From Octopus vulgaris (lineage: Eukaryota), in the NCBI GenBank assembly GCA_951406725.2, contig OX597814.1, forward strand, positions 170,686,001 to 170,750,000: a DNA stretch of 64,000 nucleotides, read 5' to 3'. The notes under the pieces are model-generated. The model was not told the DNA's origin and searched no databases. It was given only the letters and a program-made list of their open reading frames with translations. The position numbers and the translations under genes were made by a program. Positions 22,911-39,295 of the stretch are shown here, one piece after another (the first letter of the stretch is position 1; each line of letters begins with the position of its first letter).

Positions 22911-22963
22911 GTGCCTGACGAATATGTTTGAATTCTCTCAACATATGAAACTATCAGTAGCGC
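22911..22963 (+). ncRNA. Type I hammerhead ribozyme (intact core, GUA site after 22959)
   Basis: GTGC CTGACGA ATATGTT-TGAATTCTCTC-AACATAT GAAA CT-ATC-AG T A GCGC: stem I 4 bp, stem II 7 bp, stem III 3 bp. Confidence 0.85.
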
Positions 22964-36195: not shown

Positions 36196-37212
36196 TTTAT
36201 TAGTGTTGTTATATTACTGAAGATTGGGCTTTCAGATTTGCCTGCATTAAATAGACAAGGGATAAATGATTCCTTGTAAAGATATTTCTTACATGCAGCA
36301 AAGAAAAATACATGATCCTTGAGCTGTTTGTTCATCCCGCAATGCCATTAAGACATAAATAACCACACAAATTGTAAAAAATAGCAGCCAAATCTCCCTC
36401 TGCTCACATTTACCAGCTTGAAAATGGAAAAGATACATCAAATATTGTAGTCTTTGATACACCTGAAAAAAAGAAAAAACAAAAAAAAAAAAGGCAGATG
36501 GTTGTGTCCAGAATGCTTTCTGAGCAAAAGCCAGCTTGCTCAGGGTTGGCTTGGAGGCTTGTAACAACAACTTTTCCACTGATATTCCTTCTAATTTGTA
36601 AAAGGAACTGTCCATTGCATATATACGTCTGGTCATACTACATTAACCTTTACTTCAAAATGAATAGGAGACTGCTAATAACAGGTAAAGGAAATGAAGA
36701 ATCAGGAACATACACACATATGGAGCATGTCTTTGGCAATTCTACCCAGTGCAGCAATGTTGCACAACCTTTTTTCAGAACAGGTTCATGTATCAAATAT
36801 AAATTTACCTTTAACTGCAAAATGCAATGCAAGCAGACATGATTATTTTAATTAGAGAAATTAACATATCATTTGTTTTAATAAGTTTGTAAAAGGAATA
36901 TGGATTTTATTACCAATTTTTAATGCCTACTTACTTTTCACCCACCCTGTATATATATATGTGTGTGTGCATCCCCACTAGACCATGTTATTATGTAATA
37001 CTGCATTACAGGTTCTTTCGAGAACTTGACATGTTAAAATGTACATTATTTACATTCGATGGATATTTGTCCTTATCTTGTTTGTTGTTAACACGTTTCA
37101 GCTGATATACCCTCCAGCCTTTTTCAGGTGTCTTGGGGAAATTTCGAACCTGGGTTCTCATTCCTAAGGTCTTTTTCGATATCATTATTATTATTATTAT
37201 TATTATTGTTTG

Positions 37213-37285
37213 GCTCACTGCTTGGAATCGAACTAGGAATCTTGGGGTTAGTAGCCCACGTTCTTAACCACTACGCCATATGCCC
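37213..37285 (-). promoter_or_regulatory. tRNA-derived internal Pol III promoter (A and B boxes) of the H5 monomer
   Basis: Reverse complement GGGCATATGGCGTAGTGGTTAAGAACGTGGGCTACTAACCCCAAGATTCCTAGTTCGATTCCAAGCAG: A box TGGCGTAGTGG, anticodon-like arm with CT-ACT-AA loop, B box GTTCGATTCC. Second copy at ~37643-37715. Confidence 0.75.
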
Positions 37286-37333
37286 GTGGGCATATAGTGT
37301 AGTGGTTAACCAATTCTAAGCAGTGATCTGAAC

Positions 37334-37364
<31 letters not shown>

Positions 37365-37828
37365 TGGAAAAATACATTAGGAATGAGAACACAGGTTCGA
37401 AATTTCCCCAAGACACCCAAAGAGGGCTGGAGGGTATATCAGCTGAAACGATGTGTTAACAACAAACAAGATGAGGACAAATATCCATCAAATGTAAATT
37501 TGTCCTCATCTTGTTTGTTGTTAACGTGTTTTGGCTGATATACCCTCCAGCCTTTTTCAGGTGTCTTGGGGAAATTTCAAACCTGGGTTCTCATTCCTAA
37601 GGTCTTTTTCGATATTATTATTATTATTATTGTTATTGTTCAGCTCACTGCTTGGAATCGAACTAGGAATCTTGGAGTTAGTAGCACACGTTCTTAACCA
37701 CTACGCCATATGCCCGTGGGCATATAGTGTAGTGGTTAACCGATTCTAAGCAGTGAGCTTATTATAATAATAATAATAACATCGAAAAATACCTTAGGAA
37801 TGAGAACCCAGGTTCGAAATTTCCCCAA

Positions 37829-37874
37829 GACACCTGAAGAAGGCTGGAGGGTATATCAGCCGAAACGTTGTGTT
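37829..37874 (+). ncRNA. Minimal type I hammerhead ribozyme with palindromic stem III
   Basis: GACAC CTGAAGA A GGCTG-GAGGGTATAT-CAGCC GAAA CG T T GTGTT. Stem III is the ACGU palindrome (dimer type). The other three monomers have core mutations. Confidence 0.75.
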
Positions 37875-38117
37875 AACAACAAGCAAGATGAGGACAAATA
37901 TCCATTGAATATAAATAATGTACATAATTCCTCATCTCTTCAATATAGAACTATGTTAAAATGTGTATGCTTATTCAGGTTAAATTTTTGTTTTTTGTTT
38001 CTGCACAACTTTCATAATTTTACAGATGCTTTTTAACTATAGAAATAACAGGTATAATTACTGAGTAATATATTATTAGGTGATATAAAAAAAAAACAAA
38101 TAATAATAATAATAATA

Positions 38118-39295
38118 ATAGTTTCAAATTTTACATCGGCCCCAGTGTTCAACTGGTACTTATTTTATCGACCCTGAAAAGATAAAAGGCGAAGTCAACC
38201 TTGGTGGAATTTGAACTCAGAATGCAGCGACAGGCGAAGTACCAATAAGCATTTTATCCAGTGTGCTAACAATTCTGCTAGCTCGCAGTCTTAATAATAA
38301 TCCTTTCTATTATAGGCACAAGGCCTGAAATTGTAAGGGAGGGAACTAGACTATTACATCAACCCCAGTATCTCACTGGTACTTCCTTGGCGGAAATTGA
38401 ACTCAGAATGTAGTGATGGGCAAAATACTGCTAAGCATTTTGTCCAGCAAGCTAACAATTCTGCTAGCTCACTGCCGTAATAATAATAATAATAATAATA
38501 ATAATCCTTTCTACTAAAGGCATAAGGCCTGAAATTTGGGAGTGGGAGATGGTCAATTACACTAACCCCAGTACTCAACTGGTACCTAATTTATCAACTC
38601 TGAAAAGATGAAAGGCAAATTGAACTCAGCAATGGAAACTGAACTTTGAATGAAGTGACAAGTGAAATTTTGTCCAGCATGCTAACTCTTCTGCTAACTT
38701 ACCACCATAAAAATGATAATAATTATGATAATAATAATAATCATAATAATAAATAAATGAAATAATCTTTCCCAATTTTAGATAATAGCAACACAATGAT
38801 TGGAGGTGTAAGGAGTGAGAGATTGAGATGCCAGACATGAAAAACAAGAATTTTAAATAATTCTTTCTAATTTTGACGAGAAAGGGCAAGTTGATTACAT
38901 CACCTCCTGTACATGACTTTTACTTATCTTTATTGATCCTGAAAGGTCAAGATGAACTCAGTGGAATTTGAACTTAGAACCTAATGGGTTGGAAGAAATA
39001 CTGCAAAGTACTTTTTTCTGATATTCTAAGAATTCTGCCAGCTTGCTGCTTTGATAACAGTTATAATCCCTCTCTACTAATAGGTACAAGGACTGGAAAT
39101 TTTGAGGTGGGGGAGAGGGGATTAGTTAATTACATCATCCCAGTGATTAGCTTATAATTATTTTATCAACCTTGAAAGGATGAAAGGTAAGGTAAAGTCG
39201 ACCTCGGTTGAATCTGAACACAAAATGTAAAGGCAAACCAAAATTGGTGCTAAGCATTTTGTCCATCATGCTAATGATTCTGCCAGCTTGACATC
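38118..39295 (-). mobile_element. Tandem cluster of ~5 family E SINEs separated by (AAT)n
   Basis: Repeated GAAAAGATGAAAGGC..GGAATTTGAACTCAGAA..TAAGCATTTTGTCCAG..CTAACAATTCTGCTAGCTC units in one orientation. Confidence 0.8.

Follow-up and report, generated by a model that had tools for sequence, protein, structure and literature searches.

A tRNA-like head in the pseudo-LTR of a Penelope-like element and a four-unit inverted array of this repeat in Octopus vulgaris

Anatomy of the array in the window

The window analyzed in the present study is a 64,000-nucleotide stretch of the Octopus vulgaris genome (contig OX597814.1, positions 170,686,001 to 170,750,000). Four monomers of one repeat (M1 to M4) are located at 37031..37964 in the order -,+,-,+ and are enclosed by a single pair of 12-nt direct repeats (Table 1). 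An earlier reading of this DNA, hereafter the sequence-only reading, placed four monomers with these orientations inside one 12-bp target site duplication (TSD) and divided each into a tRNA-like head, (AAT)n, a minimal type I hammerhead, and a tail. Both the arrangement (37031-37042 / 37953-37964) and the layout were borne out. In the head of M1, the box consensus places the A box at approximately 37268-37278 and the B box at approximately 37224-37233.

Table 1. Coordinates of the array and its parts (positions in the window)
Feature	Positions	Strand	Remarks
TSD (12 bp), left copy	37031..37042	+	The final 4 nt also form the end of M1
M1	37039..37285	-	Head complete and tRNA-like; (AAT)n; hammerhead carries G8-to-A and lacks 3 nt at the cut site; short 3' end of the family
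tRNA-Arg-like head of M1	37215..37285	-	By alignment to tRNAs of the same genome
Native 12-nt palindrome of the source element	37281..37292	.	Center of the first inverted pair
M2	37288..37499	+	32-nt head deletion (B box lost), broken hammerhead core, ends at the duplication junction
M2/M3 junction of the probable local duplication	37498..37501	.	2-nt microhomology (AT)
M3	37500..37715	-	Probable duplicate of M1; full head, B box at approximately 37654-37663, broken core, tail cut at the junction
Native palindrome, second copy	37711..37722	.
M4	37718..37952	+	32-nt head deletion as in M2; hammerhead intact; long 3' end of the family
Codons 1 to 51 of the Penelope ORF	37800..37952	+	From a putative start ATG at 37800; open through the hammerhead and tail
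Minimal type I hammerhead of M4	37829..37874	+	ACGU replaces stem III; predicted cut 3' of 37869
One-sided tail	37929..37952	+	Between the short and long 3' ends of the family
TSD, right copy	37953..37964	+

An identical 32-nt stretch of the head, previously estimated at approximately 30 nt, is missing from both plus monomers, M2 and M4. Since this deletion takes out the start of the B box, M2 and M4 are without an intact promoter. The minus monomers M1 and M3 share the CTGAAAA core that had already been recognized as a common lesion. They also have in common the loss of 3 nt at the cleavage site and two further substitutions, one of which is rare in the family. Among other copies, G8-to-A was present in 2%, T-to-G in 1%, and the 3-nt deletion at the cut site in 16-18%. 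M4 is the sole window monomer with an intact core, as had been claimed. However, the supposed loss of the tail from M1 is not damage, but the normal short 3' end of the family. Similarly, the double palindrome is present, but its centers are the native 12-nt palindrome of the source element rather than two blunt heads meeting.

The hammerhead of M4 consists of stem I (37829-33/37870-74), CUGAAGA (37834-40), stem II (37842-61), GAAA (37862-65), and ACGU, and its predicted cut agrees with the position proposed from the sequence, 3' of 37869. A Rfam scan of the window did not report this hammerhead; the scans of the window and of another locus (L018) returned only hairpin matches to miRNA models, which were below the cut-off. 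A 27-nt word from the hammerhead core had 3602 exact matches in the genome. The conservation of core columns was 0.945 versus 0.939 for other columns, as expected for neutral copies. The tail region at 37887-37940 is predicted to fold into a hairpin (z of -2.98 for the stretch 37820-37952). This hairpin holds the short 3' end, with the long end located just beyond it, and is reminiscent of the stem-loop that serves as a start site in the anole element.

In a read-through RNA of the array, a long duplex was predicted, and the pair probability of M4 stem II decreased from 0.97 (alone) to 0.0. The sequence-only reading suggested that tandem units supply the partner for a hammerhead dimer. This did not hold at the window locus because the cores of M1, M2, and M3 are broken and the stems of M4 are predicted to be locked in the long duplex. 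Cores are broken in those monomers that retain intact boxes, the only intact core is in M4, which is without a B box, and the read-through duplex is predicted; therefore, the array looks dead, and we consider it likely to be inert.

Other features were noted in the window. A second minimal hammerhead-like motif with an unrelated sequence is present at 22915-22960 and probably belongs to another Penelope-type family. The single-copy flank contains an open stretch of 154 codons (36378-36842), which could hold a host exon; the insertion would then be in an intron. Another abundant short repeat, family D6, has a B-box-like motif and occurs twice at 38100-38490. These copies are unrelated to the head and resemble a common octopus SINE.

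The monomer as a pseudo-LTR of a coding element

The monomer is the pseudo-LTR (pLTR) of an abundant autonomous, protein-coding Penelope-like element (PLE), and not a free SINE. A genome search with M3 gave 2654 candidates, 40 of which were scored, and 28 other loci were fetched. Among these 28 loci, L028 has an endonuclease-like frame directly 5' of the head, while a Penelope-like N-terminus directly follows the tail in L006 and L013. When 30 loci were collected by the end of the ORF alone, the head was located downstream on the same strand in 28, 29 nt past the stop codon. The two exceptions, L033 and L060, are both cut inside the head. Long copies were sought with an N-terminus search, after which 18 longer stretches were fetched. 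Four natural copies are near full length (L123, L124, L125, and L137), and a pLTR is present on both sides of the ORF in L124 and L137. The order of the element is ORF stop, 29 nt, head, (AAT)n, hammerhead, tail, and ORF N-terminus; in ORF-linked copies, the frame from the ATG that corresponds to 37800 runs through the hammerhead and tail into the N-terminal region. The sequence-only reading linked the monomer to a Penelope pLTR and recommended a search for an autonomous Penelope sharing the hammerhead and tail region. The former was borne out, and the four long copies represent such an element.

RVT_1 was above the cut-off in two of the five pieces scanned (E 2e-10), and a YVDD motif was seen in L033, L036, L043, and L045. 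A GIY-YIG-like motif downstream of the RT was read by eye, and searches of Pfam and PDB sequences gave no hit for it. The Atlas neighbors were HTH_animal/RVT_1/GIY-YIG clusters, with PF01541 in 11-21% of members. The family has the RT ORF, the pLTRs in partial tandem that overlap the ORF start, the inverted 5'-truncated copy, the one-sided tail, and the minimal hammerhead of EN+ Penelope-like elements. We provisionally place it in this group by its ORF and pLTR architecture. The copies diverge by approximately 4.4% from the column majority at non-CpG sites, and none of the copies examined has an intact full ORF. Three near-identical ORF-linked copies (L192, L193, and L194) lie within approximately 1.1 Mb of one contig (C1) and are probably the result of segmental duplication. 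The family was also abundant in runs X1, X2, X6, and X17, which carry four different organism labels; therefore, it is likely to be shared among related species.

The mode of insertion was examined at 53 loci (28 from the M3 search and 25 distinct loci from a search with the core word), 31 of which were inverted pairs with both ends measurable. A flanking repeat scoring at least 10 was found in 20 of these 31 pairs versus 1.6% of 930 mismatched flank pairs. The TSD claimed for the window is real. TSD length in the family is 10-17 bp. The 3' ends form two groups that are approximately 24 nt apart, and a long end was combined with a short end in 49 of 77 inverted pairs. A head-to-head pair with one long and one short end inside a 10-17 bp TSD is the family norm. 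Since the same architecture is described in Adineta and more generally (accessible parts of PMC3846280 and PMC8557442), a palindrome in one TSD is ordinary for this class. The subfamily marker was concordant between the arms of 23 out of 25 clean pairs, with 13 expected if the arms were independent. Discordant arms were found in 7 of 46 loosely defined pairs, but in only 2 of the 25 clean ones (P 0.06 if mutation is the sole cause); these counts are compatible with both fold-back and priming on two templates.

The short 3' end also carries a variable number of 9-nt units, from 0 to 3 copies (35, 65, 20, and 2 arms, respectively; L030:1720-1770, L171:1430-1490, L119-L122). The unit also occurs in ORF-linked copies with the frame kept and may represent stutter at the start of reverse transcription. 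Three linked marker sites distinguish two subfamilies (15 and 14 of 39 arms), and the window monomers have the A state at the hammerhead marker.

The tRNA-like head and the origin of the copies

The pLTR starts with a 71-nt head with A and B boxes, which appears to be derived from a tRNA. ARAGORN detected no tRNA in the window or in any of 54 loci, Rfam returned no tRNA hit for the head in the window and L018, and the head does not fold as a cloverleaf. Its resemblance to tRNA was established by alignment to 37 tRNA sequences from 30 loci of the same genome, a sample that covered only six main isotypes. The best alignment was to tRNA-Arg(TCT), with z values of 7-9 versus shuffles for three of the four heads; for the fourth head, Cys and Thr scored nearly as well as Arg. 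Both boxes align to tRNA and are intact in the family majority, although the cloverleaf has been lost. The joining of a tRNA-type head to a hammerhead, as read in the window, recurred at 27 of 30 head-selected loci. A tandem cluster of tRNA-Cys genes and variants was seen within 3 kb at L146.

Copies tend to stop at the head start. Among 30 head-bearing copies taken in genome order, 24 end within approximately 8 nt of this point, while 6 run on into native sequence, three of which are near-identical. Of 25 arms selected by the hammerhead, 8 reach the head start, and 7 of these stop there. The number of exact-word matches decreased from 8254 in the body to 4056 at the head start over approximately 105 nt, and then to 865 in the 3' UTR just upstream over approximately 34 nt. 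The loss per base was, thus, approximately sevenfold higher upstream of the head, with mirrored arms inflating the head count. No T4 run was present in 2593 majority columns of the sense strand versus 4.7 expected (P 0.014); there were none in L123 and L125 and two each in L124 and L137. Codon-aware shuffles of single pieces gave P values of 0.11-0.93, and an unrelated control ORF was also without T4 in 1176 nt; the T4 signal is, therefore, weak. Pol III transcription from the head is a plausible explanation that fits both the 5' pile-up and the absent T4 runs. However, a native 12-nt palindrome of the 3' UTR spans the pile-up spot and could be an alternative cause of the 5' stop; the head-selected sample cannot separate the two.

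We favor, with moderate confidence, the following interpretation: the monomer is the pLTR of an autonomous PLE that landed as a head-to-head pair in one TSD and was likely duplicated locally, and the tRNA-derived head likely serves as an internal Pol III promoter in source copies. A source copy with the head and a downstream ORF start would be transcribed by Pol III from approximately 6-7 nt upstream of the head. The RT/endonuclease of the element would nick both target strands, and reverse transcription would begin inside the RNA at two 3' end positions, a step demonstrated in vitro with the anole element. Extension of the cDNA would then reach the 5' end of the RNA, where the terminal palindrome may allow the cDNA to fold back or pair with a second cDNA, resulting in the inverted pair. 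The anatomy, ends, TSDs, and 5' pile-up were observed, and we infer the polymerase, start site, priming route, and ribozyme activity.

As the main alternative, the head may be a passenger in the same Penelope, such as an old tRNA or SINE piece in the 3' UTR, with the RNA being made by Pol II and the 5' pile-up arising only from fold-back of the palindrome. We regard this as somewhat unlikely. Ten of the 24 head-stopping copies go on as an exact mirror of the head, and the mirrored junction had 1142 strand matches, many of them counted twice, versus 529 for the native junction, both of which are in line with fold-back. However, three independent same-orientation joins connect the ORF start to a point 6-7 nt upstream of the head (n=3; the search pattern required 6 upstream bases). 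Fold-back does not predict such joins. The retention of the A and B boxes in the family majority after the loss of the cloverleaf and the majority sequence without a T4 run also argue against a passenger. Moreover, the palindrome sits where a Pol III leader is expected to begin. On the other hand, the accessible text of PMC3846280 describes Adineta pLTRs with 18- and 38-bp 5' palindromes that are read as self-priming; since these palindromes occur without any tRNA, self-priming alone may explain the 5' pile-up. In addition, the Penelope pLTR of D. virilis includes a spliceosomal intron as well as the start site and an internal promoter (PMC8557442, as far as accessible).

A stronger form of the favored interpretation is that an autonomous coding retrotransposon captured a tRNA-Arg promoter in its pseudo-LTR, purged Pol III terminators from its 2.8-kb sense strand, and is transcribed by Pol III from end to end. 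We consider this doubtful. If true, one element would be both a LINE-like enzyme donor and its own SINE, and tens of thousands of short palindromic copies would be its by-products.

The sequence-only reading proposed a Pol III SINE/retrozyme hybrid built on a Penelope pLTR. The pLTR part stood, whereas a separate SINE/retrozyme did not, because the head resides in an autonomous element and fixed differences were not found. An independent Pol III-driven lineage of head and hammerhead monomers, replicating via circles or rolling reverse transcription and borrowing Penelope enzymes, is now improbable and has been largely refuted. The ratio of short to ORF-linked copies (approximately 10:1) would fit such a lineage, as would schistosome SINE-like repeats that couple a Pol III promoter with a hammerhead (PMC6765202, accessible part) and a preprint that, in its accessible part, traces animal retrozymes to PLE pLTRs (10.64898/2026.07.22.740005). 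However, each subfamily state is found among ORF-linked as well as ORF-less arms, and a comparison of 92 ORF-linked with 108 ORF-less arms yielded no fixed column; 4 of 173 columns differed at P under 0.02. The marker states had similar frequencies in the two groups over all loci (P 0.76), with P 0.012 without the M3-selected loci. The copies lie head-to-head, head-to-tail monomer arrays were not present in the sampled loci, copy ends do not fit hammerhead-to-hammerhead units, and only 61 of 189 family arms have an intact core. A self-replicating tandem unit from the head to the ORF start was rejected, with only 4 matches genome-wide. The family has the tRNA-derived head with boxes of a SINE2, but not a non-autonomous lineage apart from its enzyme donor. 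The head-to-tail hammerhead units of non-LTR retrozymes were also not observed: the array is -,+,-,+ with one intact core, and the family consists of inverted pairs. In our reading, short and long copies probably stem from the same source loci; without downstream ORF sequence, the short copies are likely dead ends.

The four-unit array probably arose when an inverted pair was later duplicated locally. An exact 23-letter word across the 32-nt deletion junction had two matches in the genome, both in the window; such a word catches a diverged source only approximately one time in three, and a source elsewhere is regarded as unlikely. M1 and M3 differ at 6 of 116 sites and M2 and M4 at 12 of 137, that is, the units differ by 5-9%. 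The restriction of the junction to the window together with this divergence points to a later duplication. Outside the deletion, M1 and M3 share approximately 4 derived changes, as do M2 and M4, and each monomer has approximately 4-10 private changes. The simplest history would be one two-arm insertion, some divergence, and then a 430-bp tandem duplication at the 2-nt microhomology (37499/37500). The earlier view that the 430-bp unit was itself duplicated agrees with the shared arm-specific lesions. In contrast, the suggestion that rolling reverse transcription produced the four units in one event is opposed by the arm-specific shared changes, after which the monomers diverged. That the array is an assembly artifact of a two-arm insertion is barely credible: although no public contig bridges the array, the divergence of 5-9% with private changes in each unit is far above assembly error, and the right junction is also present in an independent contig of run X1. 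In run X17, which has another organism label, a contig begins precisely at 37953, preceded by 95 letters that did not match, and no other run had depth at 36960-37019. This contig start hints at an empty site; a follow-up placed no contig from X17, X18, or X4. The four-unit array itself is a local accident of little interest.

The mode of PLE transcription and the reason for inverted-pair landing are still open questions in the field. In this family, the candidate start site and both 3' ends are defined and copies number in the thousands; therefore, the promoter type and fold-back step are directly testable. If the head is a Pol III promoter, this family shows one route from Penelope ends to SINE-like or retrozyme-like repeats. 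In annotation, such copies would be mistaken for SINEs, MITEs, or miRNA hairpins.

Comparison with known systems

The present family is similar to anole Poseidon and Adineta Pen2/Pen2a/Pen3a, as described in the accessible parts of PMC11167929 and PMC3846280, in having a single ORF with an RT followed by an endonuclease (putative in the octopus family), a hammerhead pLTR that overlaps the ORF start, and partial tandems. The inverted 5'-truncated copy, the one-sided tail between two 3' ends, the palindrome at the pLTR 5' end, and the short TSD are also shared with these PLEs. The ORF of anole Poseidon starts in its hammerhead; reverse transcription begins at two sites located 111-118 nt inside the ORF, and these sites delimit the tail (PMC11167929). 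Adineta elements have palindromes at the pLTR 5' end and TSDs of 8-10 bp (PMC3846280), versus 10-17 bp in the octopus family; the tail is approximately 24 nt in the octopus family and 30-40 nt in the Poseidon/Adineta PLEs. In contrast to these elements, the octopus pLTR begins with the 71-nt tRNA-derived head, and the accessible text of PMC11167929 and PMC3846280 makes no mention of one.

The predicted octopus ribozyme resembles the minimal type I hammerheads known from PLEs in animals (Cervera and de la Pena 2014; PMC4209133, accessible part), with CUGANGA, a bulged base, a long stem II, GAAA, and a palindromic ACGU for stem III. Cleavage as a dimer is expected for those hammerheads and likewise for the predicted octopus motif. 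However, the cleavage triplet of the octopus motif is GUU, and the core is intact in only one of the four window monomers.

A small-RNA-derived Pol III promoter in a terminal repeat is also found in Cassandra, Helenus, and Ajax (TRIMp3; Kojima 2024, PMC10886601, accessible part). These are non-autonomous LTR elements, whereas the octopus promoter-like head is in a protein-coding element. According to the same accessible text, in which Penelope has 0 occurrences, the autonomous partners of those elements must use Pol II; a Pol III promoter in a coding retroelement, if true, would contradict this expectation. Schistosoma Sm-alpha and Sj-alpha similarly have a Pol III-type promoter upstream of a type I hammerhead (PMC6765202, accessible part). 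However, schistosome repeats and animal retrozymes are non-coding and head-to-tail, while the octopus monomer forms the terminus of a coding element and is inserted head-to-head. The available portion of the retrozyme preprint (10.64898/2026.07.22.740005) derives retrozymes from PLE pLTRs and never mentions a tRNA or promoter.

A tRNA-headed autonomous PLE was not found in the literature searched, including the accessible parts of PMC13282606 (octopus repeat annotation), PMC8967140 (cephalopod repeats), and PMC7761336 (a retrozyme review); Repbase, Dfam, and SINEBase were outside the scope of this search, and a library entry may exist. The Penelope architecture and minimal hammerheads of this family are known from other systems. 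The unusual part is the tRNA-derived start inside the pLTR of a coding element.
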